Below, in pieces: positions 702-60,371 of a stretch of DNA of 64,000 nt. The DNA is taken from assembly GCA_963717995.1 (NCBI GenBank), contig CAVQXX010000015.1, forward strand, positions 1,841,857-1,905,856, given 5' to 3'. The DNA comes from an uncultured Bacteroidales bacterium (GTDB lineage Bacteria; Bacteroidota; Bacteroidia; Bacteroidales; UBA10428). A model generated the notes under the pieces. That model made no database searches, was not told where the DNA came from, and worked only from the letters and a program-made list of their open reading frames with translations. Both the position numbers and the translations under genes were made by a program. Numbering within the stretch: position 1 is the stretch's first letter; each line of letters begins with the position of its first letter.

Positions 702-1412
702 CTAGAAAGATCCGTAAAGAGCATGCTCCTCCGAATTGCAATAGATGGAAGAGAAAAAATAAAATCCGTTGCGGTTGGTGATCAGCTTGCGCTGAAGATG
801 CAACACGGGATGTCCCGGTGGAACCTGGAGAAAATTGCAGATGCTTTCATCCGCTCTTATGGCACGGATGCGCTGCTCGCCACTTTTTACCTCAATCTGA
901 AATGATCGGCGAAGAATATCAAAAAGGGACTGGTCCTCAAACCTGCGGTTACAGAAGCGAGGAAGATTGATGTTGGGCAGGTAGTTCAAATCGTAAAAAA
1001 CAGGGATGTCATTCACCAGCCGGAGCCGTTCCAGATAAATGCAACCCGACTGGCGGAATTCGTCATTCAGCGGAAACATAAAATCTTCCGGCCATTGTAT
1101 AATAGCCGGTTTGGACAGAATTCTGGTCCTGAGATTGTGCTTGCCCAATGCTGAAGTGGTTCCGGATATCGATAATATCCCTATGCCAATGGGCGGACCA
1201 TTTACGATACTTCCCTTACCCTTGTGTTTTCGGATCATGCCCTCGTTCAGCATGGTATCCAGTGCATGCCGCACTGTTGGTCTGGTGATCCTGTACTGCT
1301 GGCAAAGGTCATTTTCGGAAGGAAGCAGATCACCAGGCCTGTAAACGCCATCCATGACCTGCTTTCTCAATACTTCATAAAGTTGCCGGTATTGTGGAAT
1401 TGAATTGCTCAT
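702..1412 (-). CDS. GntR/HutC-family transcriptional regulator (winged HTH plus UTRA-like effector domain)
   Basis: The ATG at 1410-1412 gives MSNSIPQYRQLYEVLRKQ... with the GntR wHTH 'LPSENDLCQQYRITRPTVRHALDTMLNEGMIRKHKGKGSIV'. The longer ORF-track start (1484) adds an implausible AT-rich leader. The gene is divergent from the E2/E1 genes. Confidence 0.85.
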   Translation of the reverse strand: MSNSIPQYRQLYEVLRKQVMDGVYRPGDLLPSENDLCQQYRITRPTVRHALDTMLNEGMIRKHKGKGSIVNGPPIGIGILSISGTTSALGKHNLRTRILSKPAIIQWPEDFMFPLNDEFRQSGCIYLERLRLVNDIPVFYDLNYLPNINLPRFCNRRFEDQSLFDILRRSFQIEVKSGEQRIRAIRADESICNFLQVPPGHPVLHLQRKLITNRNGFYFFSSIYCNSEEHALYGSF

Positions 1413-1432
1413 ATAAAAAAATAAGTAAAATA

Positions 1433-1448
1433 ACTTGTAATTACAAGT
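1433..1448. promoter_or_regulatory. Perfect 16-bp palindrome ACTTGTAATTACAAGT, a candidate GntR operator
   Basis: It lies 21 nt upstream of the GntR start, in the divergent promoter region. Half-sites recur as TTACAAGT (1527-1534) and ACTTGTAA (1584-1591). The GT...AC core is typical of GntR-family operators. Confidence 0.5.
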
Positions 1449-1510
1449 ATAATTAATATATTTGCGAAGACATAAACCGAACAATTATTTAGCGCTGTAA
1501 ATATAATAAT

Positions 1511-1518
1511 TAAATTTG
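1511..1518 (+). promoter_or_regulatory. Candidate Bacteroidota -7 promoter box (TAAATTTG = TAnnTTTG) for the E2/E1 genes
   Basis: Exact match to the TAnnTTTG consensus described for Bacteroides sigma-ABfr promoters. It sits about 100 nt upstream of ATG 1621, and the TTACAAGT half-site follows immediately downstream. Confidence 0.35.
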
Positions 1519-1620
1519 ACATATGTTTACAAGTTAACCATAAAATCTTAAGCAAGGAGTTTGATTATATATCCTTTATGGAAACTTGTAAAAGAATCGT
1601 TCATTTCAAAAAAAATAAAT

Positions 1621-2916
1621 ATGGCTGTTGCTGTTATTATGCCCCGACAGGGGCAATCTGTTGAAACCTGTATTATCACAGAATGGTTAAAGAAGAAAGA
1701 TGATCCTGTAAAAACAGGTGACATTCTTTTTTCTTATGAAACCGATAAGGCCTCATTTGATGGAGAAGCCATGGCAGACGGAGTGTTGCTGGAGATTTTT
1801 GCTGCGGCCGGAGATGAAGTTCCTGTTTTAACAAACATCGCTGTCATTGGCAACCCGGGAGAGGACGTTAATACTTTCAGACCAGGAGGATCAGCTAGTC
1901 CTGCAGCTGAAAGCTCCACGCCTGTGACCGAAACCGTAGCCACAGCCCCTACTGTTTTGGAAACACCGGTTACGGCTGCAAGTGATCAACGGATCAGAAT
2001 TTCCCCGCGGGCAAAAACCATGGCATTAAAAATGGGATTGAATCCTGCGCTGATAAAAGGTACCGGACCCAATGGCAGGATTATTGTCCGTGACCTGGAA
2101 AATCTACAGGGACAATCACAGGTGATTACGGCCACGGCTCAGGTTACTGCCTCTGCAAATGTTGCCTCAACTGCCACGGCTTCCGCTTTCAGTCAATTCC
2201 AGGGTGCAGCTCCAATCGGCGCATTTGAGGAGAAAAAATTATCGAACGTTCGTAAACTCATTGCCAGGGCAATGTATGAATCCATCAGCACTTCTGCCCA
2301 GCTCACCCATCATATGTCGGCTGATGTCCGGAAGCTTCTCGCCCTGCGCAGTCAGGTAAAGGCAGAACTCGATAAAGGAGGCAATGTGAATATCACACTG
2401 AATGACATGATCTGTTTTGCTGTGATCCGTGCACTTGAATTGTTTCCTGAAGTCAACACTCATTTTACAGGTACCAGCCTTCGTGAGTTTAAGAAGGTTC
2501 ACCTTGGACTGGCGGTTGACACACCTCGCGGACTCATGGTACCCGCAATTCAGAATGCAGATGATCTTTCGCTGAAGGGACTTTCAGCCCGCCTGCGTGA
2601 GGTGGCTGACCAGTGCCGTAAAGGAAATGTAAATCCCGAAATGCTGGCCAGCACCGCTGCCTCCTTTACAGTTTCCAACCTGGGAAATTATGGTGTGGAA
2701 ATGTTCACTCCCATTATTAATCTTCCACAGGTAGCCATTCTGGGAGTAAACACGATTATTTCCCGGCCGGCCGACCTGGGCAACGGGACATTTGGTTTCA
2801 TTCCGGTGATCGGTTTGTCGCTTACCTATGATCACAGGGCTGTTGACGGAGGACCCGCCACACTGTTCCTGAAGGAGATTAAAAATCAAATTGAAAATTT
2901 TAAAGAGAGTATTTAA
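1621..2916 (+). CDS. Dihydrolipoamide acyltransferase, the E2 component of a 2-oxoacid (pyruvate/acetoin/branched-chain type) dehydrogenase complex
   Basis: Start MAVAVIMPRQGQSVE at ATG 1621. Lipoyl-lysine motif 'ETDKAS', an Ala/Pro/Thr-rich linker, an E3-binding-like segment 'RISPRAKTMALKMGLNPALIKGTGPNGRI', and the catalytic 'DHRAVDG'. Confidence 0.92.
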   Translation: MAVAVIMPRQGQSVETCIITEWLKKKDDPVKTGDILFSYETDKASFDGEAMADGVLLEIFAAAGDEVPVLTNIAVIGNPGEDVNTFRPGGSASPAAESSTPVTETVATAPTVLETPVTAASDQRIRISPRAKTMALKMGLNPALIKGTGPNGRIIVRDLENLQGQSQVITATAQVTASANVASTATASAFSQFQGAAPIGAFEEKKLSNVRKLIARAMYESISTSAQLTHHMSADVRKLLALRSQVKAELDKGGNVNITLNDMICFAVIRALELFPEVNTHFTGTSLREFKKVHLGLAVDTPRGLMVPAIQNADDLSLKGLSARLREVADQCRKGNVNPEMLASTAASFTVSNLGNYGVEMFTPIINLPQVAILGVNTIISRPADLGNGTFGFIPVIGLSLTYDHRAVDGGPATLFLKEIKNQIENFKESI

Positions 2917-2924
2917 GAATGTAT

Positions 2925-2957
2925 AGTTTTTAACTTTTAGTTTTTAACTTTTAACTT
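2925..2957. repeat. AGTTTTTAACTTTT 14-nt tandem repeat (x2 plus a partial copy) in the E2-E1 spacer
   Basis: agtttttaactttt occurs at 2925-2938 and 2939-2952, followed by aactt. The repeat contains TAA and TAG. Confidence 0.8.
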
Positions 2958-2962
2958 ATATC

Positions 2963-5431
2963 ATGCCTAAGAGTCAATTCATCGATCCAAAAGATATCCG
3001 GAAAACAGGAAAAATTACATTTGGAACCATCCCGGTAAACCAATATAACAGGAATATTACCGATGAGAAAAAGAATTTTTCCAATGATGATTTTGTTCGT
3101 ATATATCGCGACATGGTCATTATCAGGGAATTCGAAAACATGATCAATGATATCAAAATTAAAAATGAGTACCGCGGTATTGCTTACAACCATCCGGGCC
3201 CTGCCCACCTGTCGATGGGACAGGAGGCTTCAGCAGTGGGGATGGCTTATGCTCTTACCGTAGATGACCTGATTTTTGGCTCACACCGTAGTCATGGTGA
3301 GATCCTTGCAAAAGGATTATCAGCAATCCACCAGCTTTCGGAAGATGCCCTCATGGAGGTTATGAAGAATTATTTTGGCGGCAAGGTTCTTGCCGTTGTG
3401 GAAAGAGATCATAAAGGAACTGTTCGAGAACTGGCGATCCGTTTCCTGCTTTATGGAACACTTGCTGAGATCTTTGCCCGTGAAAACGGATTTAATAAAG
3501 GCCTCGGCGGATCGATGCATGCCTTTTTCACTCCTTTCGGAGTATATCCCAATAATGCAATTGTGGGTGGATCAGGCGATATTTCAGTAGGTGCAGCGCT
3601 CTTTAAAAAAGTGAACGGCAAATCGGGAATTGTAGTCTGTAATATTGGTGATGCATCCATGGCATGCGGTCCGGTTTGGGAGGGAATTTCATTCGCCACC
3701 ATGGACCAGTATACCCAGCTTTGGGAAGATGCATACCGTGGCGGTCTGCCCATCATTTTCAACTGTATGAATAATCAGTACGGAATGGGAGGCCAGACCT
3801 GCGGCGAAACCATGGGATACGGCCTGGTAGCCCGGATTGGTGCAGGCGTAAATGCCGAAATGATGCATGCTGAAAGGGTGGATGGTTACAATCCGCTGGC
3901 TGTTATTGATGCCTTTAAACGCAAAAAGGCCATTTTGCTCTCTAAAAAAGGTCCGGTTTTACTTGATACCCTCACATACAGGTTCAGCGGTCACTCTCCT
4001 TCCGATGCCTCCTCTTACAGGAGCAAAGAAGAAGTAGAAGCATGGCAGAATGTGGACTCGATCATTACATACGCGCGAACTCTGAATGATGCCGGCATCA
4101 CTGCTTCGTCATCCCTGGATTCGATCAGGCAAAATATAATTGAGGAGATCACCGGCATTTTGAAACTGTCTATCGATGACAATCTCTCTCCGCGGTTAAA
4201 CCTTTCGATGAATCCGGATGCAATAGCGGAACTGATGTTTTCCAACGGATCAGTTGATTCACTGGATGATCGTAAGCCGGAATCCCTTATTCCCCTCGAA
4301 GAAAATCCAAGGGTAAAAAGTCTCAAAACCAAACAAAGGTTCTATCTCGACAAAGAAGGCAAACCCGTATCAAAAGCTAAATTATTCCAGCTCAGGGATG
4401 GCATATTCGAAGCCGTGATCGATCGCTTTTATAAGGATCCCACCCTGGTGGCCTATGGCGAGGAAAACCGTGACTGGGGCGGTGCTTTTGCCGTATATCG
4501 CGGACTTACTGAAGCTATGCCCTACCATCGCCTGTTCAATTCACCGATCGCCGAAGGTGCTATTGTGGGAACAGCAATTGGCTATGGCATGGCAGGAGGC
4601 CGGGTAATTGCTGAAATTATGTATTGCGATTTCATTGGACGCTGCGGGGATGAACTGTTCAACCAGTTGCCGAAATGGCAGGCCATGAGCGGAAACCTCA
4701 TCAAGATGCCGGTTGTTATCCGCGTCTCTGTAGGATCAAAATATGGTGCACAGCATTCACAGGATTGGTCATCACTTATTGCTCATGTTCCGGGAATTAA
4801 AGTGGTTTTCCCCACTACGCCATATGACGCCAAGGGATTAATGAACAGCGCGCTGCAAGGTACAGATCCTGTTGTGTACTTCGAAAGCCAGCGGATTTAT
4901 GATGTAGGCGAACAGTTCCATGAAGAAGGAGTTCCTGAAGGCTATTATGAAATTCCCATTGGGGATCCCGATATAAAACGCAAAGGATCAGATATCACCA
5001 TCCTTACAATTGGTTCAACGCTGTACATGGCTTTGAAGGCTGCCGACAAACTGCAGAATGAATACGGAATTTCAGCCGAGATTATTGATGCCCGTAGTCT
5101 GGTTCCGTTTAATTATGACCTGGTAATCGAATCTGTGAAAAAGACAGGCCGCATTGTGCTGGCCAGCGATGCCTGTGCACGTGGCTCGTATTTGCGCGAT
5201 GTTGCTTCCAACATAGCTGAAATGGGATTTGACTATCTCGATGCACCACCGGTGGTTGTTGGATCCCGCAATTGGATCACTCCTGCCTATGAAATGGAAG
5301 AATACTTCTTCCCCCAGGTGGAATGGATCCTGGATGCCATACATGAAAGAATTGTACCGTTGAAAAATCATAAGGTTACTTCTGATTGGTCGGTTGAAAC
5401 ACAAATGAAGAGGAGCCGGTTGGGGGTGTAA
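2963..5431 (+). CDS. Fused E1 alpha/beta subunit of a TPP-dependent 2-oxoacid dehydrogenase
   Basis: 822 aa. The N-terminal half resembles E1-alpha, with the TPP motif 'GDASMACGPVWE...FNCMNNQYGMGG' (GDG..NN type). The C-terminal half resembles E1-beta (transketolase-like Pyr and C-terminal domains: 'NSPIAEGAIVGTAIGYGMAGGR', 'IDARSLVPFNYD'). Confidence 0.9.
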   Translation: MPKSQFIDPKDIRKTGKITFGTIPVNQYNRNITDEKKNFSNDDFVRIYRDMVIIREFENMINDIKIKNEYRGIAYNHPGPAHLSMGQEASAVGMAYALTVDDLIFGSHRSHGEILAKGLSAIHQLSEDALMEVMKNYFGGKVLAVVERDHKGTVRELAIRFLLYGTLAEIFARENGFNKGLGGSMHAFFTPFGVYPNNAIVGGSGDISVGAALFKKVNGKSGIVVCNIGDASMACGPVWEGISFATMDQYTQLWEDAYRGGLPIIFNCMNNQYGMGGQTCGETMGYGLVARIGAGVNAEMMHAERVDGYNPLAVIDAFKRKKAILLSKKGPVLLDTLTYRFSGHSPSDASSYRSKEEVEAWQNVDSIITYARTLNDAGITASSSLDSIRQNIIEEITGILKLSIDDNLSPRLNLSMNPDAIAELMFSNGSVDSLDDRKPESLIPLEENPRVKSLKTKQRFYLDKEGKPVSKAKLFQLRDGIFEAVIDRFYKDPTLVAYGEENRDWGGAFAVYRGLTEAMPYHRLFNSPIAEGAIVGTAIGYGMAGGRVIAEIMYCDFIGRCGDELFNQLPKWQAMSGNLIKMPVVIRVSVGSKYGAQHSQDWSSLIAHVPGIKVVFPTTPYDAKGLMNSALQGTDPVVYFESQRIYDVGEQFHEEGVPEGYYEIPIGDPDIKRKGSDITILTIGSTLYMALKAADKLQNEYGISAEIIDARSLVPFNYDLVIESVKKTGRIVLASDACARGSYLRDVASNIAEMGFDYLDAPPVVVGSRNWITPAYEMEEYFFPQVEWILDAIHERIVPLKNHKVTSDWSVETQMKRSRLGV

Positions 5432-5435
5432 AGGC

Positions 5436-5463
5436 CGGTATTCGGTGATCGGTGATCGGTAAA
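5436..5463. repeat. CGGTRAT heptamer array (4 units) starting 5 nt after the E1 stop
   Basis: Units are cggtatt, cggtgat, cggtgat, cggtaaa. TGA/TAA recur with a 7-nt period. Confidence 0.8.
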
Positions 5464-5473
5464 TTAGAAATAA

Positions 5474-5558
5474 TTGTAGAGCCAGGGCAATGCCCTGGCT
5501 GTAAGGTCACCAGCACAGGAGAAAAATACTGTAGAGACAAGGCAATGCCTTGTCTGTA
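5474..5558. repeat. Two copies of a roughly 30-nt hairpin element (TGTAGAG-stem-AAT-stem-GTA). A third copy lies at 41819-41839.
   Basis: Copy 1 has stem AGCCAGGGC/GCCCTGGCT (5480-5500). Copy 2 has stem AGACAAGGC/GCCTTGTCT (5535-5555). Both have loop AAT, and the stem differences between copies are compensatory. Confidence 0.8.
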
Positions 5559-5587
5559 CGATTACCAACACGGATCAAAATATAGGG

Positions 5588-5657
5588 TAGAGTTAGTTTA
5601 AGTAGTAAGTTTAGTAGTTAGTAGTTAGTAGTTAGGAGTTAGGAGTTTGGAGTTGGG
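5588..5657. repeat. Degenerating AGTTAGT/AGTTAGG heptamer array (about 10 units)
   Basis: ...agtagttagtagttagtagttaggagttaggagtttggagttgggg. TAG recurs every 7 nt. Confidence 0.8.
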
Positions 5658-5679
5658 GCAGCCAGAGGGTGGCTGCCCC
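5655..5679 (+). terminator. GC-rich hairpin (9-bp stem GGGGCAGCC/GGCTGCCCC). Possible terminator or insulator between E1 and the PHP-like gene.
   Basis: The stem is perfect with a 7-nt loop and is followed by a weak T-rich tail (ttattaacaatt). It lies 29 nt before ATG 5708. Confidence 0.4.
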
Positions 5680-5707
5680 TTATTAACAATTAAAGGAAAA
5701 GCAAAAA

Positions 5708-6943
5708 ATGAAGTCGAATTTTCTTTCCACGTATCCCGATAGTCAGGCATTGCTAAAGATGACTCCTGCCAGTGAAATCCCACAGGTAAACGGTCATGTT
5801 CATACTCCTTATTCATTCAGCGCCTTTGAAAATATCGGACAGATATTTGAAATGGCACGCAAAGAAAAGATTGTGGCTGTGGGAATTAACGATTTTTTTG
5901 TATCCGACGGTTATGAACCCTTCTGCACAGAAGCTCTGAAAAACAATGTTTTTCCGCTGTTCAACATCGAGTTCATCAGTCTGCTAAAATCGGAACAACA
6001 GCAAGGGATCCGGATCAACGATCCAAATAATCCGGGTCGCTGTTATTTTAGCGGAAAGGGATTAAACTATCCTTTTTCGGTTGATAAATCCCTGGCTGAA
6101 AAACTCGGCCATATAGTGAGCCAGAGTCAGGAACAGGTAAAAGCCATGATCGAGAAATGCAATCAGTGGTTTACAGCAATAAAAGCAGACATACGGCTTA
6201 ATTACCCTGATATCCGCCTGAAATTTGCCAAGGAACTCGTCAGGGAACGTCATATTGCAAAGGCCATCCGTGTAGCGGTCTTCGAAACATTTTCAGGTGA
6301 GCATGAGCGTAAAACTTTGCTGACCCTGATATTTGATGGAAAAGAACCAAAATCAAACCTTACCGATATTCCTGCCCTTGACAATGAAATCAGGGGCAAT
6401 CTGCTGAAATCGGGGGGTAAGGCCTTTGTTGAAGAGGATGAAAATGCTTTCATGAGTTTAGATGAAGTAATAGAAATTATCCTGGCTGCCGGTGGAATTC
6501 CATGTTACCCGGTCTTACTTGATGATAAAAACGGCACCTATACCGAATATGAGCGCGATCCGGAAATTTTGTATAAAGAACTGGGCAAAAGGAATATAAA
6601 ATGCCTGGAACTTATTCCGGGAAGAAATGATGCCTCTCATCTTCAGCGTTTTGTGGAGTTTTTTCAGAAAAAGGATTTTGTTATACTCCTGGGAACTGAG
6701 CATAACGCTCCTGAAATGATTCCCCTAACCTGTGACACACGCGACAAAAAGCCTTTAAATAGCTATATCAGCCAAATTTCCTATGAAGGAGCCTGCGTGG
6801 TCGCCGCTCATCAATACCTGAAATCCAAAGGATTACACGGTTTTATCAATGAAAAGGGATTGCCTGATACTGCACGGAAATCTGAACTGGCTAAACTCGG
6901 CAGTGCTGTTATTCATTATACAAACGTAACCTATAAAGCATAA
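5708..6943 (+). CDS. PHP-domain-like metal-dependent phosphoesterase family protein
   Basis: N-terminal 'NGHVHTPYSFSAF' resembles PHP motif I (HxH..S) and a late 'GTEHN' resembles the C-terminal His motif. The stop is 2 nt before the next gene. Family assignment is by motif only. Confidence 0.5.
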   Translation: MKSNFLSTYPDSQALLKMTPASEIPQVNGHVHTPYSFSAFENIGQIFEMARKEKIVAVGINDFFVSDGYEPFCTEALKNNVFPLFNIEFISLLKSEQQQGIRINDPNNPGRCYFSGKGLNYPFSVDKSLAEKLGHIVSQSQEQVKAMIEKCNQWFTAIKADIRLNYPDIRLKFAKELVRERHIAKAIRVAVFETFSGEHERKTLLTLIFDGKEPKSNLTDIPALDNEIRGNLLKSGGKAFVEEDENAFMSLDEVIEIILAAGGIPCYPVLLDDKNGTYTEYERDPEILYKELGKRNIKCLELIPGRNDASHLQRFVEFFQKKDFVILLGTEHNAPEMIPLTCDTRDKKPLNSYISQISYEGACVVAAHQYLKSKGLHGFINEKGLPDTARKSELAKLGSAVIHYTNVTYKA

Positions 6944-6945
6944 AT

Positions 6946-8916
6946 ATGACTGACAAGTATCTTTCTGATCTCATCAGTATATCTCAGCATTTTGGTGCAG
7001 ATAAGGAATATGTCATTGCCGGAGGCGGTAATACCTCTTACAAAAATGACACCGACATCTGGGTAAAGGCAAGTGGTACATCCCTGCAGAATATCAGTAT
7101 AGCTGGTTTTGCCAAATTGCACCGGAGCCTTCTTCAGGAAATGTATACGAAGAAATACAGTCAGGAGGCCGATAAACGGGAGGCTGAGGTTAAGGCCGAC
7201 CTTTACAGGGCCTGCCATGAAGGAATTACCGTGCGGCCTTCGGTAGAAACCTCAATGCATGAGATCATCAATTATCCCTTTGTGGTTCATACCCACCCCA
7301 CCCTTGTGAATGCAATTACATGCTCAAACAAGGCGGAAGAAATAATCCTTTCGTTATTCGGCGATGAGGCCTTGTACATTCCCTGGGAAGATCCGGGTTA
7401 TATCCTGTTCGCCAAAATAAGGGATCTTCTGTGGGAATGGCGTAAAACACATTCGGCCGATCCGCAGATAATTTTCCTGCAAAATCATGGTGTTTTTGTG
7501 GCTTCCGGCACCACAGAGGATATTTTTGAAAAATACAGGAATATTGACTCAATCATACGCAAGCATCTTAAACAGATGCCTGATACAACCGCAATAGAAG
7601 TACCTGCGCAGATTGTGAGGATATTACCGGCCCTGCGAATGATCTTTTCCAGGGAAAACGCAAAAATAGCCGGCATCAGAAATAATCCGCTGGCACAGCT
7701 TTTCCTCAAAGACGCTGCCAGTTTTGCAAAGGTTGCCCTTCCGTTCATTCCCGACCAGATAGTGTATTGCAAGGCAAGAGCAATCTATCTTGAACAGGAT
7801 CAGCCCGAGGCAATCATTGCAGAATGCAACGCCAGGGTCACTGCATATGAAAAACAATACGGATATATGCCCAAAATGGTGGGCCTGAAGGGTTACGGAA
7901 TAATAGCCATTGAAGATACCTGGAAATCAGTGGATACAATGCAGGAGGTTTTTGAGGACTGGATGAAGATCAGCTTTCTGTCGGAAAATTTCGGCGGTCC
8001 TCATTTCATGAGTGAAAGGGATATCTCCTTTATCGATAACTGGGAGGTGGAAAACTACAGAAGACAGATCTCCAAATCAGCATCATCAAAAGGCAGGGCA
8101 GAAAATAAGATCGTTGTGGTAACCGGAGGTGCCCAGGGATTTGGTGCCGGAATCGCTGCACATATGATGAATGAAGGGGCCAACATGGTAATCGCCGATC
8201 TGAATGAGACTATGGGTAAAGAACTGGCTAATACCTTTAACCAGGGAAAAAACAAGGGGAAAGCAATCTTTGTAAAGACTGATGTATCCAGTGCCTCCTC
8301 CGTTGAAAACCTTATCACGGAAACAGTACGGAATTTTGGCGGACTGGATGTGTTCATCAGTAATGCGGGCATACTTCGTGCAGGCGGACTGGATGAAATG
8401 AGTCCTGAATCGTTTGAACTAATGACAAAGGTTAACTACAATGCCTATTTTCTATGTGCAAAATATGCTTCAGCCGTATTAAAACTGCAATCCACACAGA
8501 AGCCGGGATTTTTCACCGACATTATACAGATTAACTCAAAATCAGGATTAAAGGGCAGCAATAAAAACTTTGCCTATGCAGGAGGCAAATTCGGAGGAAT
8601 TGGCCTTACACAATCCTTTGCCCTTGAACTGATGCCTTTCGGTATTAAGGTGAATTCGATATGTCCGGGTAATTTCTTTGAAGGTCCATTGTGGAGTGAT
8701 CCGGAGACGGGATTGTTTGTCCAATATCTGAGAACAGGCAAGGTACCGGGAGCAAAAACGATCGAGGATGTAAAAGCCCGGTATGAAAAGCAGGTTCCGG
8801 CAGGCCGCGGCTGCAGGGTAGAGGATGTGATGAAAGCCATTTATTATGTCATTGAACAGGAATATGAAACAGGTCAGGCTGTTCCGGTAACAGGTGGACA
8901 GGAAATGCTTAGTTAG
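6946..8916 (+). CDS. Bifunctional class II aldolase/adducin-domain plus short-chain dehydrogenase fusion (rhamnulose-1-phosphate aldolase/lactaldehyde dehydrogenase RhaEW-like architecture)
   Basis: 656 aa. The N-terminal ~400 aa are class-II-aldolase-like ('FVVHTHP', 'QNHGVFV'). The C-terminal SDR has 'VVTGGAQGFGAGIA' (TGxxxGxG), 'NAG' and the catalytic 'YAGGK' (YxxxK). Confidence 0.8.
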   Translation: MTDKYLSDLISISQHFGADKEYVIAGGGNTSYKNDTDIWVKASGTSLQNISIAGFAKLHRSLLQEMYTKKYSQEADKREAEVKADLYRACHEGITVRPSVETSMHEIINYPFVVHTHPTLVNAITCSNKAEEIILSLFGDEALYIPWEDPGYILFAKIRDLLWEWRKTHSADPQIIFLQNHGVFVASGTTEDIFEKYRNIDSIIRKHLKQMPDTTAIEVPAQIVRILPALRMIFSRENAKIAGIRNNPLAQLFLKDAASFAKVALPFIPDQIVYCKARAIYLEQDQPEAIIAECNARVTAYEKQYGYMPKMVGLKGYGIIAIEDTWKSVDTMQEVFEDWMKISFLSENFGGPHFMSERDISFIDNWEVENYRRQISKSASSKGRAENKIVVVTGGAQGFGAGIAAHMMNEGANMVIADLNETMGKELANTFNQGKNKGKAIFVKTDVSSASSVENLITETVRNFGGLDVFISNAGILRAGGLDEMSPESFELMTKVNYNAYFLCAKYASAVLKLQSTQKPGFFTDIIQINSKSGLKGSNKNFAYAGGKFGGIGLTQSFALELMPFGIKVNSICPGNFFEGPLWSDPETGLFVQYLRTGKVPGAKTIEDVKARYEKQVPAGRGCRVEDVMKAIYYVIEQEYETGQAVPVTGGQEMLS

Positions 8917-8957
8917 TTGTGTTGTTAGTTGTTAGTTGTTAGTTGTTAGTTGTTAGT
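8917..8957. repeat. GTTGTTA heptamer array (about 5 units) starting at the stop codon
   Basis: ttgtgttgttagttgttagttgttagttgttagttgttagtg. TAG recurs every 7 nt, so it falls in all three frames. Confidence 0.85.
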
Positions 8958-8974
8958 GCAGATGCATTCATTTT

Positions 8975-8993
8975 CCGTGGATTTCATCCACGG
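8975..8993 (+). terminator. Hairpin CCGTGGAT-TTC-ATCCACGG, a possible intrinsic terminator of the aldolase/SDR gene
   Basis: Perfect 8-bp stem and 3-nt loop, followed by ttattgat. The T-tract is weak. Confidence 0.35.
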
Positions 8994-9026
8994 TTATTGA
9001 TATATGGCCTCTCCGGGGCCGTCACC

Positions 9027-9050
9027 ACTGCAAGACTGCAAGACTGCAAG
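9027..9050. repeat. ACTGCAAG octamer x3
   Basis: Three perfect copies. The same octamer family occurs at 28511, 36659 and 39286, and inverted at 43043. Confidence 0.85.
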
Positions 9051-9061
9051 ATCATAAAACA

Positions 9062-9165
9062 ATTAGCACATTAGCACATTGGCATATTAGCACATTAGCA
9101 TATTAGCATATTAGCATATTAGCACATTAGCACATTAGCACATTAGCACATTAGCACATTAGCAT
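9062..9165. repeat. ATTAGCAY octamer array, 13 contiguous units, ending 15 nt before ATG 9181
   Basis: 8x attagcac, 4x attagcat and 1x attggcat, counted unit by unit. An inverted copy of the family (gctaatgt) lies at 39239-39270. Confidence 0.9.
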
Positions 9166-9180
9166 ATTAATTTTTAAATT

Positions 9181-10455
9181 ATGAAAACCAAGGCAATACG
9201 AATATACGGCAAGGATGACCTGAGGCTCGATGAGTTTGAACTGCCGGAGCTCCGTGAAGATGAGATACTGGCTCATGTTATTTGCGACAGCATCTGCATG
9301 TCGTCGTATAAAGCTACAAAGCAGGGCACTGATCATAAAAGAATCCCTGATGATGTACATATCAATCCCACCATTATAGGCCATGAATTCAGCGGGGAGA
9401 TCGTAAAATCGGGAAACAAGTGGAAGGATCAGTTCAAACCCGGCATGAAATTCTCTATCCAGCCGGCCATTAATTATCCCGACGGACCCGTTGGAATATT
9501 GTCTGCACCCGGTTATTCATACCGTTATATTGGCGGGGACGCAACCTATATCATTATTCCGAACGAGGTAATGGAACTGAATTGCCTGCTGCCTTATACC
9601 GGTCCGGGATATTATCCCGGAGCACTTGCAGAGCCCCTGTCCTGTGTAATTGGCGCTATGCATGCCAATTACCATACGCGTCCCGGTTCTTATGTGCACC
9701 AGATGGAGATTGTGGACGGGGGAAACATGGCCCTGCTTGCCGGTGTCGGTCCCATGGGTCTTGCTGCCATCAATTATGTAATTAACCGGAAAGACCGTAA
9801 ACCATCACTCCTGGTGGTTACTGATATTGATCAGACCAGGCTTGACAGGGCAGCCAGTTTATTTACTCCTGAAAAGGCACTGCAAAATGGAATCAGGCTT
9901 CATTATTTGAATACAAAGAACCAGGCAGATCCGGTAAAAAGTCTGCTCCAGATCACAGATGACAAGGGATACAACGATGTATTCGTGTTTGCTCCGGTAC
10001 CTGGCGTAATTCAACAGGGAGATTCCATCCTGGCTTTTGACGGATGCCTGAACTTTTTTGCCGGCCCCTCAGATCCCCAATTTAGTTCAGCATTTAACTT
10101 TTATAATGTTCATTACAATTTCACCCACATTGTAGGCACCAGCGGGGGTAATAATGACGATATGGAAGAGGCGCTGATCCTCATGTCGGAAAACCTGGAT
10201 CCTGCCGGACTGGTAACGCACATTGGAGGGCTGGATGCAGTGATTGAAACCACCAGGCATCTTCCTGACATTCCGGGTGGAAAGAAACTGATTTATACAA
10301 ACATTTCCATGCCGCTTACGGCACTATCTGATTTTGAAGAAAAGGGGAAAATAGATCCCTTGTTCAGGGAACTGGCGGTTTTGATTGCAAAAACAAAAGG
10401 CCTCTGGAATACTGAGGCCGAGAAATATTTGATTAATAACGCCAAATCAATTTAA
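9181..10455 (+). CDS. Zinc-dependent medium-chain dehydrogenase/reductase, a long ~420-aa form (sorbose-1-phosphate-reductase-like size class)
   Basis: 'GHEFSGEIV' (the GHE Zn-ADH motif), an N-terminal Cys cluster 'HVICDSICMSS', and the Rossmann motif 'LAGVGPMGLAA'. Confidence 0.8.
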   Translation: MKTKAIRIYGKDDLRLDEFELPELREDEILAHVICDSICMSSYKATKQGTDHKRIPDDVHINPTIIGHEFSGEIVKSGNKWKDQFKPGMKFSIQPAINYPDGPVGILSAPGYSYRYIGGDATYIIIPNEVMELNCLLPYTGPGYYPGALAEPLSCVIGAMHANYHTRPGSYVHQMEIVDGGNMALLAGVGPMGLAAINYVINRKDRKPSLLVVTDIDQTRLDRAASLFTPEKALQNGIRLHYLNTKNQADPVKSLLQITDDKGYNDVFVFAPVPGVIQQGDSILAFDGCLNFFAGPSDPQFSSAFNFYNVHYNFTHIVGTSGGNNDDMEEALILMSENLDPAGLVTHIGGLDAVIETTRHLPDIPGGKKLIYTNISMPLTALSDFEEKGKIDPLFRELAVLIAKTKGLWNTEAEKYLINNAKSI

Positions 10456-10635
10456 CCATTCATCTGACGAAATACGCGAGAAAACAAAAAGGATTATCAT
10501 CAGATCCCCCAAAATTTAACGCAGAGAACGGTAAGTTTTTGTTTACCAGGCTTGAAGAGGTCGCAGAGAAATCTCATTGCATTCGATTTAACCGTTTTCA
10601 AGGTTAAAATCTGATCATCAGCGAAAATCTGCGAG

Positions 10636-10687
10636 AAAAAAAGCATTAAAAAAATGCAACTATCCCATTATTGTTAGATAGTTGCAT
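10636..10687 (-). terminator. Rho-independent terminator of the minus-strand gene 10710-11432
   Basis: 11-bp perfect stem ATGCAACTATC (10654-10664) / GATAGTTGCAT (10677-10687). On the minus strand it is followed by TTTTTTAATGCTTTTTTT. Confidence 0.75.
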
Positions 10688-18769: not shown

Positions 18770-18807
18770 TTAGGGGCTTAGGGGCTTAGGGGCTTATAGG
18801 TTGTTAG
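18770..18807. repeat. TTAGGGGC octamer array (3 units plus degenerate units) starting 5 nt after the stop
   Basis: Units are ttaggggc x3, then ttatagg and ttgttag. It is inverted relative to the array at 18917-18964. Confidence 0.85.
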
Positions 18808-18916: not shown

Positions 18917-18964
18917 TCCCTAAACCCCAGGGCCCCTAAATCCCTAAACCCCTAAACCCCTAAT
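18917..18964. repeat. CCCCTAAA octamer array (6 units), the inverted partner of 18770-18807
   Basis: Units are tccctaaa, ccccaggg, cccctaaa, tccctaaa, cccctaaa, cccctaat. The reverse complement TTTAGGGG differs from the left unit CTTAGGGG at one position. Confidence 0.85.
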
Positions 18965-35304: not shown

Positions 35305-36234
35305 CTAGGAATGGAAGACCAAAAGCGGAATACCACTGTGATAGAATAGCTTTTTGGGCAGATTCGGCTTAAACAGTTTCTCAATGATGCTCCGGCGATG
35401 AGAGGTAAGTGAAACAATGTTGATGTTTTTTTCTCGTACAAGGTTATCCAGGTTTTCCAGCAGGTTTTTCTGATTGATGAAGCTGTAGGTCACCTGTGTC
35501 TTTCCATATGCCTTACTGAAATAAGCCATTAGCCCGTCCATTTTTATCTGGTCCCATTCTTTCGGATCCTCCCCGATATGCACACAGTGTATGTCAAGAT
35601 CAAGCTGTTCGGTAATATTCATCAGTTTTTTGAGAGAGAGAAAATCAGATTCATCAAAATCAGTCACATACAATACATTCTTAACATTTTTCTCCCCTAT
35701 AAAGATGTATTTCTCAGGCACGGCTATGATTGGAAATGTTATCCGGTTGATGACAGCCGCAGTGACACTGCCAATAATGGAGCCGACACCGGTTCCTTTA
35801 CCATGGGTACCCATAACCACCAGGTCGGGTTCATATTCCTGGCTGAATTGAATGATCTCATCTTCAGGAACTCCGGGTGCAATGTCATAACTAAATAGGG
35901 TGGCCTTCATGCCGCATTCGGCAACATAATCCTTCATTTGCTGGATAAAGCTTTCGATAGTGGCCCTTTCACTTTCCTCAAGATTGGTAGTTACCTCTTC
36001 ACGCAGTTGTGTCTGGGTTTGAACCGCACCTGCCAGTTCAATCAGGTCAAAAGCCGGGGAATAATACGTGTGAAAAAATTTGATTTCGGCACCCACCTTG
36101 CAGGCTATTTTAATCGCATAGCGGCAGGCGAACTTTGAACATTCAGAATAATCCACAGGAACAAAGATCTTTCGAATAACACCCGAGAAGGCCGTCTTAT
36201 CTGAAATATGGCTGGCTGCTTTCATATCCCACAA
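35305..36234 (-). CDS. Tandem universal stress protein (2x UspA domain)
   Basis: 'DLVVMGTHGKGTGVGSIIGSVTAAVI' is the Usp ATP-binding G-2x-G-9x-G(S/T) region, and a second Usp-like half follows. Convergent with the preceding gene, with a 7-nt gap. Confidence 0.8.
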   Translation of the reverse strand: MWDMKAASHISDKTAFSGVIRKIFVPVDYSECSKFACRYAIKIACKVGAEIKFFHTYYSPAFDLIELAGAVQTQTQLREEVTTNLEESERATIESFIQQMKDYVAECGMKATLFSYDIAPGVPEDEIIQFSQEYEPDLVVMGTHGKGTGVGSIIGSVTAAVINRITFPIIAVPEKYIFIGEKNVKNVLYVTDFDESDFLSLKKLMNITEQLDLDIHCVHIGEDPKEWDQIKMDGLMAYFSKAYGKTQVTYSFINQKNLLENLDNLVREKNINIVSLTSHRRSIIEKLFKPNLPKKLFYHSGIPLLVFHS

Positions 36235-36390
36235 TATTTAAGGAATTAAAACCTTGTACAAGTTAGTTAAAAAATGGGTCGATTGCAATATCTGCTTGAG
36301 AAGATATGAGAGTTGAGTAGGGAGTCCCTCAGCATTTATCAATTTTGCCCCAAAATAATTAACTGAAATGGAAAATGCGAACAAAGTGAG

Positions 36391-36569
36391 CATTCATCTG
36401 CGTGCCGAAGGCATCCCTTCGGGAAAATCTGCGGAATCTGCGAGAGAAGTTTTTGGAATTTATGACTTTACAGGGAATATGTAAAAGTTTTACCGCCGAG
36501 GTCACGAAGGAATACGCAAAGTTCACAAAGTTTAATTTTGAGGCGCTTTGCTTTTTTGAGGTCGCAGAG
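36391..36569. repeat. Degenerate word-repeat region sharing 10-12-nt strings with 10457-10636
   Basis: cattcatctg occurs at 36391 and 10457. gaaaatctgcg / atctgcgaga occurs at 36423-36445 and 10623-10636. gaggtcgcagag occurs at 36558 and 10557. There is also a hairpin CCGAAGG-catc-CCTTCGG at about 36404-36421. Confidence 0.7.
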
Positions 36570-36658
36570 TTTAGCGACCCTGCCTTTGTGCCTTTGTTAC
36601 AGTCATTTAAAATCTAGTTATTTAAGAGTAAGGAGTAGGGAGATTCCACTCTGAAGAG

Positions 36659-36688
36659 ACTGCAAGACTGCAAGACCGCAAGACTGCC
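36659..36688. repeat. ACTGCAAG octamer array (about 3.7 units)
   Basis: Units are actgcaag, actgcaag, accgcaag, actgcc. The unit is identical to that at 9027-9050. Confidence 0.85.
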
Positions 36689-36817
36689 TTGAGATTTCAG
36701 TTGCAGACTTTTGACAGATCGTTATCAAGACACAATATAAATAAATGGAGGCAACACCCCCGAAATAATAAAATATATATTTTCGGGAATTAAATCAGGA
36801 TCACTCTTACAGGTTAC

Positions 36818-39228: not shown

Positions 39229-39238
39229 TGAACAATCT

Positions 39239-39317
39239 GCTAATGTGCTAATGTGCTAATTTGCAAATGTGTTCCGGAGACTTTCGACTGCATGACTGCA
39301 TAACTGCATAACTGCAA
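39239..39317. repeat. GCTAATGT octamers (4 units, 39239-39270) and RACTGCAT octamers (4 units, 39286-39317) between convergent genes
   Basis: The first array is the reverse complement of the ATTAGCAC family at 9062. The second belongs to the ACTGCA family. A 12-bp palindrome AATTTGCAAATT lies within the first array. Confidence 0.85.
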
Positions 39318-39344
39318 AACTTCCTCTACCGGTCAGCTTATACG

Positions 39345-41805: not shown

Positions 41806-41818
41806 AAAAATATAGTAG

Positions 41819-41851
41819 GGACAAGGCAATGCCTTGTCCTGTCTTTTTATT
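41819..41851 (+). terminator. Rho-independent terminator, the third member of the GGCAATGCC hairpin family
   Basis: Stem GGACAAGGC / GCCTTGTCC with loop AAT, followed by tgtcTTTTTATT. Confidence 0.75.
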
Positions 41852-46357: not shown

Positions 46358-47140
46358 ATGAATAGTAAAATGATCATTTATGTTACCGGAATTCTGGTGT
46401 TTTTCACCGTTATTATTATTGCTTGTGAAAAGGAAAAAAAATCTTCCGCACCTGAACTTCCGCCTCTTTCAACTTTTTCGATGCAGATAGATGACCTTTC
46501 TATGGCTGAAAAAGCTGCTGGTTCCTATAATAATATAATTACTGCCGCGTTGGCCACAGGCTACTGGAATACAGTATTGACGGCTTACCTGGCGGTTCCT
46601 GTAGCATCCTATGCTGAAGCCTTTAATCATCCTGCCCAGAGACTGGATAATAACACCTGGGAATGGACATACCAGGTAGTGGTTCAGGATACCACCTATA
46701 CCGCCAATTTATTTGCCTTTATTGAAAGCAATGGCATTAATATGGAAATGCATGTTTCCAAAGAGGGAGGATTTCAGGATTTTGTATGGTATACAGGGAC
46801 TTTCAATTTGGAGAGAACAGAGGGACAATGGACCATTCAGGATAATCCTGAAAACGATATGACCTGGCTGAACATCATCTGGCATCATGATTACGTGGCT
46901 AAAACCTTTGATATTCAATATACAAACGTATATCCAACAGGTGATTACAAAGACAGTTTTATTAAATATGGTATCCGGAAGGATAATGCCTATGACGCCT
47001 TTTATAACATTTACAGTTCACCGGATGACAAAACCTATGAAATAGATTTTAACACAACCACGCACGAGGGCAGAATATATTATGAATCATTATGGCATTG
47101 CTGGGATGCAAATTTACAGGATGTGATTTGCCCCAATTAA
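46358..47140 (+). CDS. Hypothetical lipoprotein
   Basis: Signal peptide and lipobox 'VFFTVIIIACEKE'. No recognisable family. Confidence 0.55.
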   Translation: MNSKMIIYVTGILVFFTVIIIACEKEKKSSAPELPPLSTFSMQIDDLSMAEKAAGSYNNIITAALATGYWNTVLTAYLAVPVASYAEAFNHPAQRLDNNTWEWTYQVVVQDTTYTANLFAFIESNGINMEMHVSKEGGFQDFVWYTGTFNLERTEGQWTIQDNPENDMTWLNIIWHHDYVAKTFDIQYTNVYPTGDYKDSFIKYGIRKDNAYDAFYNIYSSPDDKTYEIDFNTTTHEGRIYYESLWHCWDANLQDVICPN

Positions 47141-47210
47141 TTTACGATCTACGATTTACGATTTATGATGTAAGACACCAATCGTAAATCGTATATCGTA
47201 AATCGTAAAT
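47141..47210. terminator. Inverted heptamer arrays (TACGATT x4 / AATCGTA x4) forming a ~30-bp-arm hairpin, probably a bidirectional terminator
   Basis: Left arm 47141-47170 and right arm 47180-47210, with a 9-nt spacer (taagacacc). The arms are complementary except at 3-4 positions. The element fills the 75-nt gap between the convergent genes almost completely. Confidence 0.6.
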
Positions 47211-47215
47211 AATAT

Positions 47216-48253
47216 TTATTCCGCAATATATTTCTTCAATCCTTTGGTGTAATACACCTTAAAATTCCCATTTTCATCGGAGTAAATAAGGTAGGCATCC
47301 AGGAACCTGTTTTCATTTAGAAATTTTATCGACCGGTCGGTTCCCATGACCATGAATGCAGTTGCATAGGCATCAGCAGTCATACAATCACCTGCAACCA
47401 CGGTAGCGCTGAGAAGATTTGATATCACCGGGTAACCCGTCTTTGGATTAATCGTATGCACATATTTTATTCCGTTCTTCTCATAAAACTTCCTGTAATT
47501 ACCCGATGTTGCCAGGGAATGATCATTCAACTTCACAATGGACTGCAAGTCTGTACCAGGAATATTATTACCATCAACCGGCTTATCAATGCCGATGCGC
47601 CAGTAATCGCCCTGTTCATTTTTTCCCCGGGCACGTACCTCTCCGCCAATTTCAACCATGTAGTTTTTTATTTTCCGTTTATCCAGATAATCTGCAACAA
47701 CATCAACTGAATACCCCTGTGCCAGGGCATTCACATCCAGGGTAACATGGCTGTCGGTTTTCACCAGTGTATCCCCCTGAAGCTTCACCTTTTCCATTCC
47801 TATATATTGCAGCAGACTGTCAATCATAGTGCTGTCCACGTTCAGCGTGTCGGTGGTACCAAATCCAAGGGCATTTATCACAGGAGCTACAGTAATGTCA
47901 AAGGCACCATCTGTTTTTTTGAATACCTCATATGATTTAATGAATACATCAGTGAATTTCTTATCTGCATGTAAACCAGGCTCATTTTTGTTGAACCGTG
48001 TGATCAGTGAAGCAGGCAGGTATGTTGACAGTGATCTGTCAAAATCCGCCAGCATGGAATCCACCGATGTTTTAAGGTCTTCTCCGCTTCTGCTTTCATA
48101 GGTGATATGGTAGGTAGTGCCCTGGGTAAAACCTGCAATCCGCATATACTCCCCTTTTTTGTGTGAACGACTGATTAGGAAAACAACAAGGAGGATAGCA
48201 GCGATTATGATAAGCTGCAGATAAAGTTTTTTGAATTTACGCGGTGAAGCCAT
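47216..48253 (-). CDS. apbE: FAD:protein FMN transferase (ApbE family)
   Basis: 'AFDITV', 'ALAQGYSVD', 'MVEIGGEV', 'SLATSGNYRKF' and 'HTINPKTGYP'. Confidence 0.92.
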   Translation of the reverse strand: MASPRKFKKLYLQLIIIAAILLVVFLISRSHKKGEYMRIAGFTQGTTYHITYESRSGEDLKTSVDSMLADFDRSLSTYLPASLITRFNKNEPGLHADKKFTDVFIKSYEVFKKTDGAFDITVAPVINALGFGTTDTLNVDSTMIDSLLQYIGMEKVKLQGDTLVKTDSHVTLDVNALAQGYSVDVVADYLDKRKIKNYMVEIGGEVRARGKNEQGDYWRIGIDKPVDGNNIPGTDLQSIVKLNDHSLATSGNYRKFYEKNGIKYVHTINPKTGYPVISNLLSATVVAGDCMTADAYATAFMVMGTDRSIKFLNENRFLDAYLIYSDENGNFKVYYTKGLKKYIAE

Positions 48254-60283: not shown

Positions 60284-60371
60284 GATGAAGAATATGTTAC
60301 CTGAGACCATAAATGTTGAGATGGATTTGAAACCCATCTCTACAAAATCTGACAATTAATAATTATCCAAA

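Follow-up and report, generated by a model that had tools for sequence, protein, structure and literature searches.

A tandem ATTAGCAY octamer array before a Bacteroidales dehydrogenase gene is probably one of many slippage-born repeats in the intergenic DNA of its lineage

We analyzed a tandem array of the octamer ATTAGCAY that lies directly before the gene for a zinc-type MDR dehydrogenase in an uncultured Bacteroidales bacterium (contig CAVQXX010000015.1). The window, as we call it throughout, is the whole 64-kb (64,000-nt) stretch of that contig that was analyzed, and positions are counted from its first letter. The array sits in a 264-nt spacer (8917-9180) between the MDR gene and a co-directional gene encoding a bifunctional class II aldolase/short-chain dehydrogenase (SDR). 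Repeats were delimited with Tandem Repeats Finder (TRF), and the features of the locus are as follows.

6946..8916, plus strand: bifunctional class II aldolase/SDR gene, 656 aa, with the 3' end ...CTTAGTTAG
8912..8957, plus strand: (GTTAGTT)x6.9 heptamer array (TRF), beginning in the last codons and the stop codon TAG (8914-8916) of the upstream gene
8975..8993, plus strand: terminator-like hairpin CCGTGGAT-TTC-ATCCACGG, with an 8-bp stem and a 3-nt loop, followed by TTATTGATAT
9027..9051, plus strand: (ACTGCAAG)x3.1 octamer array (TRF), a member of a recurrent CTGCA-type unit family
9062..9169, plus strand: ATTAGCAY octamer array of 13 full units and a partial ATTA (TRF)
9166..9180, plus strand: A/T-rich leader ATTAATTTTTAAATT adjoining the start codon, delimited by alignment with relatives
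9181..10455, plus strand: zinc-type MDR dehydrogenase gene, 424 aa

TRF assigned the tract at 9062-9169 a period of 8, 13.5 copies, 93% matches and a score of 174, the top score in the window. The full units at 9062-9165 read, in order, ATTAGCAC, ATTAGCAC, ATTGGCAT, ATTAGCAC, three copies of ATTAGCAT, five of ATTAGCAC and a final ATTAGCAT, which amounts to eight, four and one copies of ATTAGCAC, ATTAGCAT and ATTGGCAT, respectively, in the variant order C C G C T T T C C C C C T. The start codon at 9181 begins 11 nt past the end of the array at 9169 and 15 nt past its last full unit. An initial annotation of this DNA had described the 13 units, their variant counts and order and their 15-nt distance from the start codon, and every one of these details was exact; the two further arrays and the hairpin that it placed upstream were also found, at 8912-8957, 9027-9051 and 8975-8993, and transcripts that reach the MDR gene must, as it stated, read through the array. 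Chance is not a viable source of a 13-unit array. Each of the six frames contains 3-5 stop codons, so the array is non-coding on both strands and coding potential was ruled out. The last 10-15 nt before the gene (ATTAAT...ATG) are the sole part of the spacer kept in an alignment of close relatives, and no Shine-Dalgarno-like sequence is visible in the leader at 9166-9180, as is consistent with Bacteroidota. Rfam covariance models gave no match anywhere in the 64-kb window. The hairpin segment (8975-8993) had no second copy in the window or in 198 loci and is missing from three relatives (L001, L002 and L003, see below); a mobile origin of the segment 8958-9026 was rejected because the segment is unique.

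The array is not an isolated feature of this spacer. The window is 90.4% coding, yet all 16 of its strong arrays, defined as those of period 7, 8 or 14 that TRF scored at 38 or more, lie outside coding sequence, an outcome with a probability of ~5e-17 if arrays were placed randomly by length. Many of these strong arrays start a few bases from a stop codon. When intergenic gaps of at least 40 nt were sorted by orientation, on a gene map built with ATG starts only, arrays were present in 5 of 6 convergent gaps and in 1 of 8 divergent gaps (Fisher p = 0.026), the single array-bearing divergent gap being 592 nt long; arrays therefore follow gene ends, not promoters. About 5 of the 16 co-directional gaps have an array. 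Among the 14 arrays in the window with at least 2.8 copies, 12 have a period of 7 or 8 and the remaining two a period of 14. The genes beside them are metabolic, and the arrays are generic, not aimed at a limited set of genes as contingency repeats would be. In the window and the relatives nearest to it, period-7/8 arrays reach a density of 1-3.6 per 10 kb; elsewhere in the order they are sporadic. The ATTAGCAY unit itself occurs at one more position.

39234..39271, minus strand: second ATTAGCAY-type array (ATTAGCAC/ATTTGCAA), 4.8 copies, in a convergent gap beside a CTGCA-type array at 39287-39321

With the MDR protein as query, we compared the locus across 80 species-representative genomes and 80 metagenome contigs, the nearest of which were metagenome-assembled genomes (MAGs) of uncultured Bacteroidales. 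Labels of the form L001 denote individual loci or contigs, namely the MDR loci of relatives and a set of phage contigs from IMG/VR (L171-L173, L175, L176, L180-L182 and L185). The adjacency of the aldolase/SDR and MDR genes was resolved in 135 of 170 fetched loci and is conserved order-wide; over these 135 loci the median spacer length is 86 nt and the lower decile 12 nt, from which we take the pair to be ancient and in many cases tightly packed. A 7- or 8-nt array was present in 21 of the 135 orthologous spacers, and the units are mutually unrelated (AATTATG, AAGATTA, AAGATTC, ATTACAG, TTTGTTGA, CGCAAAGT, CTCTGAAC, GCAACTA and others). The clade of the window spans 82-96% nt identity in the MDR gene, and its MDR spacers contain the following, where the ATTAGCAY unit counts compare species-level lineages, not strains of one species.

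L199-L201: about 3 ATTAGCAY-type units
L001: 5 units straight after the stop codon, the spacer being otherwise empty
L003: 5.5 units
L002: about 9 degenerate units
Window: 13.5 units
L166, L167, L168, L170 and L004: REP-like hairpin (TGTAGAGATGGGTTTGAAACCCATCTCTACA or GTAGAGACAAGGCAGTGCCTTGTCTCTAC)
L161-L165 and L169: inverted AAAAGAT/ATCTTTT-type heptamer arrays

No ATTAGCAY units were found in the orthologous spacer of L004, L161, L166, L167 or L170, and the spacers of L161 and L167 are unrelated at a gene identity of 97.3%. Lineages in which the array is missing or replaced interleave with ATTAGCAY-bearing ones, and at 85-96% nt identity in the MDR gene the spacer content already ranges from about 3 to 13.5 ATTAGCAY units, a REP-like hairpin or other arrays. 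Because it is found in lineages that span the clade, the ATTAGCAY tract is old; it is also length-variable and has been repeatedly lost. The mutability that the initial annotation had attributed to the tract was thus borne out between species, by unit numbers of about 3, 5, 5.5, 9 and 13.5 and by replacement in sister lineages; the shorter arrays of a sister species, by contrast, were constant. In this species, represented by L161, the spacer had an identical length in six metagenome samples with arrays of 3-9 copies and only point changes, so short arrays are not wildly unstable. Exact-protein look-ups with three window genes and with P0001, which is identical to the window protein and so is probably the source itself, did not find a second assembly of the window's species, and a metagenome scan yielded no relative nearer than 92-94%.

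Arrays that grow from local sequence are a prediction of in-place expansion by slippage, and we saw two such cases. The 3' end of the aldolase/SDR gene (...CTTAGTTAG) seeds the GTTAGTT array, and because the seed AGTTAG sits at the same gene end in L001, L004 and L161, all of which are without the GTTAGTT array, the indication is that this array expanded in place. In L007 and L090, (AATTATG)n grows from the leader and start codon AATTATG, with a one-unit difference at 90.9% nt identity. In both of these loci the last AATTATG unit provides the MDR start codon, and every added unit means one more upstream AUG; the in-frame AUG at -21 reaches TGA after five sense codons and gives a tiny upstream open reading frame (ORF). 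Contigs of relatives also end in repeats: L081 stops 19 nt before the ATG, and L199-L201 stop inside an ACTGCA array at one end and inside a REP-like hairpin at the other.

The neighboring array at 9027-9051 belongs to a family of octamers with a CTGCA core (ACTGCAAG, AACTGCAA, AGACTGCA, ACTGCATA and AGTTCTGC), arrays of which occur at 9027, 28510, 36657, 39287 and 43042 in the window and, among relatives, in L002 (3855-3897), L003 (3901-3926), L004 (554-584) and at the 5' end of L199. They are found in either orientation, usually 10-15 nt from a second, different array. At the MDR spacer, the orientation and position seen in the window are kept in L199-L201 and the array is reversed in L002 and L003. 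Five arrays of this family in 64 kb represent a recurrence beyond what purely local slippage explains.

The initial annotation had proposed that octamer number could set the spacing of promoter elements or the length of the 5' untranslated region (UTR). The former was not supported by the motif searches. An exact Bacteroidota -7 motif (TAnnTTTG) is absent from the 250 nt upstream of 9181 and from the internal spacers of the gene string 1621-10455, the conserved sugar-catabolism cluster to which the MDR gene belongs, and a sigma-70-type scan of the MDR spacer gave no site. The near-match TAATTTTT at 9168-9175 was dropped because it is not conserved in L001 or L003. Moreover, the array does not lie between -33 and -7 elements, because its 104 bp exceed any such spacer. 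The only exact TAnnTTTG motifs upstream of the gene string are at 1457 and 1511, in the following gap.

1413..1620, plus strand: divergent gap separating a GntR-family regulator gene (702-1412, minus strand) from the first cluster gene (1621), with two TAnnTTTG motifs

This gap is the probable promoter region of an operon, the operon assignment being one that we infer. Homologues of the MDR protein are labeled 'L-sorbose 1-phosphate reductase' or 'threonine dehydrogenase-like' by JGI. With the tract outside any ORF and no motifs on its flanks, its length would alter neither a reading frame nor the spacing of a promoter or regulator site. A reading of the unit as a DnaA box or centromere iteron was dropped on reasoning from sequence, since it is unlike TTATNCACA and an 8-bp period does not leave successive units on one helix face.

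An effect of UTR length fared no better in folding models. The array alone is predicted to be essentially unstructured, with a minimum free energy of -7.9 kcal/mol over 108 nt, and in a thermodynamic titration from 2 to 24 units the mean unpaired probability of the start region (-15 to +12) stayed at 0.57-0.60, compared with 0.47 at zero units; predicted accessibility of the start is therefore flat with respect to unit number. RNAfold does pair the GUUAGUU array with the AUUAGCAY array (UGUUAGU:AUUAGCA, 7 bp including two G.U pairs), with z = -3.2 against dinucleotide shuffles. Under two nulls that preserve the repeats this signal was lost: the unit duplex falls at the 6.8th percentile of non-cognate array pairs, and the fraction of permuted-unit arrays that fold at least as well was 0.38 for the window, 0.93 for L002, 0.45 for L003 and 0.95 for L001, so real units fold no better than permuted ones in any of the four species. 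On these grounds, and because L001 has no partner array, we rejected RNA pairing between the two arrays. Across all neighboring array pairs, complementarity was not significantly higher in cognate than in non-cognate pairs (Mann-Whitney p = 0.07), but a small group of 4-5 near-perfect inverted pairs is genuine.

Two of the inverted pairs lie in the window. (ATTTACG)x4.3 at 47140-47169 and (AATCGTA)x4.4 at 47180-47210 are exact reverse complements and fill a 75-nt convergent gap between genes at 46358-47140 (plus strand) and 47216-48253 (minus strand); the predicted hairpin, with tandem-repeat arms of 24 nt at 96% complementarity, resembles a bidirectional terminator. (TTAGGGGC)x3.4 at 18770-18796 directly follows a stop codon and (CCCTAAAC)x5.8 at 18918-18963 lies 121 nt downstream. 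These two arrays are near-inverse (7 of 8 positions; unit duplex -34 kcal/mol, at the 0.4th percentile of the null) and flank a terminator-like hairpin (AGACCTTCAGGG...CTGGAGGTCTTTTC); their units resemble eukaryotic telomere repeats, probably by coincidence, and their G-runs could form quadruplexes. In L137, a more distant Bacteroidales metagenome contig, positions 2649-2953 read (AAAAATG)x5.6, (GGAGTTCA)x4.1, 128 nt, (AACTCCTG)x2.9 and (TTTTCAT)x4.1, i.e., nested inverted arrays, two per arm, that form a long composite hairpin of tandem repeats.

Inverted octamer arrays were also present in phage genomes. An exact scan of IMG/VR for (ATTAGCAY)3 returned 16 contigs, compared with 2 and 9 for scrambled controls, and a specific enrichment of the unit in viruses was rejected since this excess is only modest; ACTGCARG returned 0 contigs in the same database. 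Nine of the 16 belong to uncultured siphoviruses related to Bacteroides phage Bacuni_F1 (L171-L173, L175, L176, L180-L182 and L185), with which they share 68% aa identity in the large terminase. Many of their spacers between co-directional structural genes are filled, from the stop codon to the next ATG, by (CTAATGTG)n, a short loop and (CACATTAG)n, also with a CACATTTG variant. The hairpin arms are tandem octamers of CTAATGTG/CACATTAG and of AATGTGCA/TGCACATT, and L173 carries at least 7 inverted octamer pairs in 12.8 kb. The length of the arm on the ATG side differs at 95-98% flank identity (spacers of 234, 138 and 106 nt, and of 122 and 154 nt), and the ATTAGCAY-type unit differs by 4 to ~16 units between phages with such flanks. 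The cultured phage Bacuni_F1 was found to lack octamer arrays, L173 did not match any deposited phage at the nucleotide level, and the literature searched contained no description of such phage hairpins. In the early mRNA of phage T7, RNase III hairpins lie between cistrons, from a stop codon to the next start. The Bacuni_F1-like hairpins share this placement between genes and differ by their tandem-octamer arms, (CTAATGTG)n/(CACATTAG)n, of variable length; that they are cleaved would be an analogy to T7.

We conclude that the ATTAGCAY array is probably a long simple sequence repeat (SSR), an 8-nt minisatellite born of slippage, which forms an unstructured intercistronic spacer and whose copy number drifts without acting as a programmed switch. 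Replication slippage would create the array and keep resizing it in the non-coding spacer between two co-directional genes, as one of a lineage-wide population of 7- and 8-nt arrays that fill intergenic DNA, mostly just past stop codons. Most likely, a polycistronic mRNA starting around 1457-1511 would carry the array as a G-poor, open spacer before the A/T-rich leader of the MDR gene, and because it is G-poor and open it would be tolerated there and not required. Gain or loss of units would change the intercistronic distance with no predicted shift in accessibility of the start site, and copy number would for that reason drift between lineages, from about 3 to 13.5 units or to replacement.

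Dispersed intergenic tandem families across a whole lineage are familiar from the STRR heptamers of cyanobacteria, which have few fixed units and a high copy number; the arrays described here are likewise lineage-wide and intergenic but belong to another phylum and have highly diverse units that include octamers. The class to which we assign the array is already known from the long SSRs of Mrázek et al. (2007) and the intergenic heptamer arrays of MacGregor (2015). According to PMC4679880, through which we cite the former, heptamers are the commonest long SSR in prokaryotes, with polymerase slippage as the proposed cause; MacGregor reported TAACTGA and other heptamers in Beggiatoaceae, Cyanobacteria and five Bacteroidetes, and where a Bacteroidetes intergenic region contains a heptamer array, the spacer of a close relative is shorter and free of repeats, and contigs often end in such arrays (PMC4679880). 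As far as these repeats are described in that account, the likeness is close: units are arranged head to tail (5-11 nt in the case of the Mrázek SSRs) and their length is not a multiple of three; arrays are nearly all intergenic, at many loci per genome, often before a start or after a stop codon; and relatives are repeat-free and shorter, with indels of whole units and contig breaks in repeats. Our array has the unit size and copy number of long SSRs, a non-triplet period in non-coding DNA, and copy-number differences among relatives. Unlike in the repeats of those two studies, octamers are as common here as heptamers, there are dozens of units with no dominant heptamer, gene 3' ends and convergent gaps are favored over start codons, some arrays form inverted pairs, and the host is an uncultured freshwater/soil Bacteroidales lineage.

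Several observations weigh against reading the array as a drifting, functionless repeat. The ATTAGCAY array abuts ATTAAT...ATG in the window, L001, L002, L003 and L199, down to ~85% MDR nt identity, and on the sequence comparison this persistence over ~15% gene divergence is more than expected for pure junk. The unit recurs at the second window locus with a shared linker and in Bacteroides-phage-like genomes, which hints at sequence-specific selection or module copying; the non-repeat linker at 39273-39291 matches the MDR spacer of L002, a match suggesting that a composite module was copied between the 39-kb locus and an MDR-type spacer. By the folding model, the units of L001 and L002 are less structured than 93-95% of permuted units, so there could be selection for an open leader. 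The terminator-like hairpin between the genes (8975-8993) may mean some independent transcription of the MDR gene. Finally, the neutrality of the tract is itself something we infer.

Known phase variation in Bacteroidota is driven by invertases, and a contingency SSR, in which slippage in octamer number shifts promoter geometry or 5'-UTR length and so switches or grades MDR expression within populations, is unlikely here, although we place it ahead of the other rivals. The array does end 11-15 nt before the ATG, as a tract in the 5' region should; its blockwise variant order and range of 3-13.5 units among relatives show mutability; and the upstream terminator-like hairpin leaves space for a separate promoter. 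There is also a precedent in transcribed heptamer repeats that grade expression upstream of hmw1A in Haemophilus influenzae (PMC12721329). This (ATCTTTC)n repeat of hmw1A/hmw2A lies between the transcription start and the start codon and is the best-documented case of expression grading, and our array resembles it in having a 7-8-nt unit, more than 10 copies, a place before the start codon and a variable number (PMC12721329; PMC8262952). The hmw repeat, however, pairs as the left arm with a G-rich right arm in a long hairpin that is cut by RNase III, whereas here no partner arm survives the repeat-preserving test, and the products of the hmw genes are adhesins subject to host selection, whereas the gene here is a catabolic dehydrogenase. 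A mutable tract upstream of a gene is likewise shared with the SSRs that set promoter or operator spacing in Neisseria and Haemophilus (nadA TAAA, PMC2791445) and with the homopolymer and tetranucleotide tracts of Moraxella uspA1/uspA2, as described in PMC4679880. Such tracts have 1-4-nt units, lie between or closely upstream of defined promoter or operator elements, and are limited to a few dozen contingency genes; in contrast, the array here has an 8-nt unit and spans 104 bp, is not flanked by promoter elements, and has counterparts throughout intergenic DNA. Neither a TAnnTTTG motif nor a -33/-7 pair stands beside the array, which is too long for a promoter spacer; similar arrays occupy convergent gaps and positions past stop codons genome-wide; predicted accessibility of the start region ignores unit number; and a sister species shows no length change across six samples in its arrays at this spacer. 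The dedicated expression switch of the initial annotation was accordingly not upheld, the arrays being generic in non-coding DNA and the target gene, one of a conserved pair, encoding a housekeeping-type catabolic enzyme and not a surface or restriction-modification product as is typical of contingency loci. Copy number may nonetheless have a graded effect on MDR expression.

We regard as rather improbable, and next in rank, a role of the AUUAGCAY repeat, ((AUUAGCAC)n), as a sequence-specific platform for a host protein, one that binds either DNA or single-stranded RNA, which would be shared with phages and would set translation, stability or termination of the neighboring cistron. Units of the CACATTAG/CACATTTG type occur at two window loci; four to five related species have them at the same site, and the Bacuni_F1-like Bacteroidales phages have them between many of their cistrons; the array persists at ~85% gene identity, and MacGregor suggested binding of S1, Csp or CsrA-type proteins for TAACTGA arrays just before start codons (PMC4679880). 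We rank such a sequence-specific role below neutral drift because loci across the order carry unrelated units in this spacer, where evidently no particular motif is required; in addition, the viral excess over composition-matched scrambles (16 contigs against 2 and 9) is modest, the second window copy is in a convergent gap with no start codon downstream, and no candidate binding protein was identified. More doubtful still is a broader proposal, in which the 7/8-nt arrays would be a lineage-wide regulatory layer of host and phage, made of intercistronic and 3'-end elements (start-codon arrays and inverted-pair hairpins), through which slippage of whole units would heritably tune the processing, termination or translation of hundreds of operons; as part of the same joint claim, the ATTAGCAY tract would be a half-hairpin or open-leader form that sets MDR output, by analogy with the hmw1A rheostat but in a non-pathogenic Bacteroidales. 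Lower again in our estimate is the possibility that the array pairs with the (GUUAGUU)n array 105 nt upstream to form a long RNA hairpin, which would be an intercistronic element of processing, termination or stability comparable to the RNase III hairpin of hmw1A or the RNase III sites between T7 cistrons. It would fit the RNAfold pairing (z = -3.2), the true inverted pairs at 47140/47180 and 18770/18918 and in L061 and L137, and the inverted hairpins that the ATTAGCAY-type octamer makes between phage genes, but the pairing signal does not outlast the repeat-preserving nulls (6.8th percentile; fractions 0.38, 0.93, 0.45 and 0.95) and L001 has the array with no upstream partner. Least probable is that the copy number or the whole tract stems from mis-assembled repetitive reads. 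Such arrays are hard to assemble, as seen from short-read contigs of relatives that end at or in them (L081 and L199-L201); against an artefact stand the ordered pattern of unit variants, orthologous arrays in five independent assemblies that include long-read MAGs, and flanks collinear with those of relatives.

Other non-coding elements were noted in the same DNA. The REP-like palindrome family GTAGAGNCARGGCAATGCCYTGNCTNTAC occupies intergenic gaps of the window at 5476-5499, 5531-5559 and 41815-41838, replaces arrays at the MDR spacer of L004, and is also found at the 3' ends of L081 and L199-L201; because short-read contigs end inside the palindrome, a high copy number is suggested. A second palindrome, (TGTA)GAGATGGRTTTGAAACCCATCTC(TACA), which shares the GTAGAG...CTCTAC ends, is present at 60318-60340 in a divergent gap of the window and in the MDR spacers of L166, L167, L168 and L170. 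Two motifs, GAGGTCGCAGAG (10557-10568 and 36558-36569) and AATCTGCGAGA (10626-10636 and 36435-36445), occur both in the convergent gap that follows the MDR gene and in the 592-nt gap at 36226-36817, which hints at another dispersed non-coding element or a small RNA. Lastly, a 920-nt stretch at 57103-58022 (minus strand) is an open frame with neither a stop nor an in-frame ATG and a Y/G/N-repeat-rich translation; judged from its sequence, it probably forms the 5' part of the gene that ends at 56638, with a non-ATG start, and is not intergenic.

Dense intergenic 7/8-nt arrays characterize this Bacteroidales lineage and some of its cultured relatives, among them Mangrovibacterium marinum DSM 28823, with (GCAACTA)x7.7 in its MDR spacer, and Gaoshiqia hydrogeniformans Z1-71, and the significance of our findings lies mainly in this lineage-wide pattern and in the phage hairpins, not in the ATTAGCAY tract as a regulator. 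The phage octamer-array hairpins are an unannotated class of element and candidate sites of intercistronic processing or termination, with arm lengths that evolve fast. If slippage and drift are the whole explanation, the value is mainly practical, in that arrays of this kind break short-read assemblies, inflate distances within operons and mimic regulatory switches, and the lineage would be a natural system for asking why prokaryotic slippage favors 7-8-nt registers. If, on the other hand, the arrays tune expression, repeat-driven variation would extend from a few surface genes of pathogens to the metabolic operons of environmental Bacteroidota.

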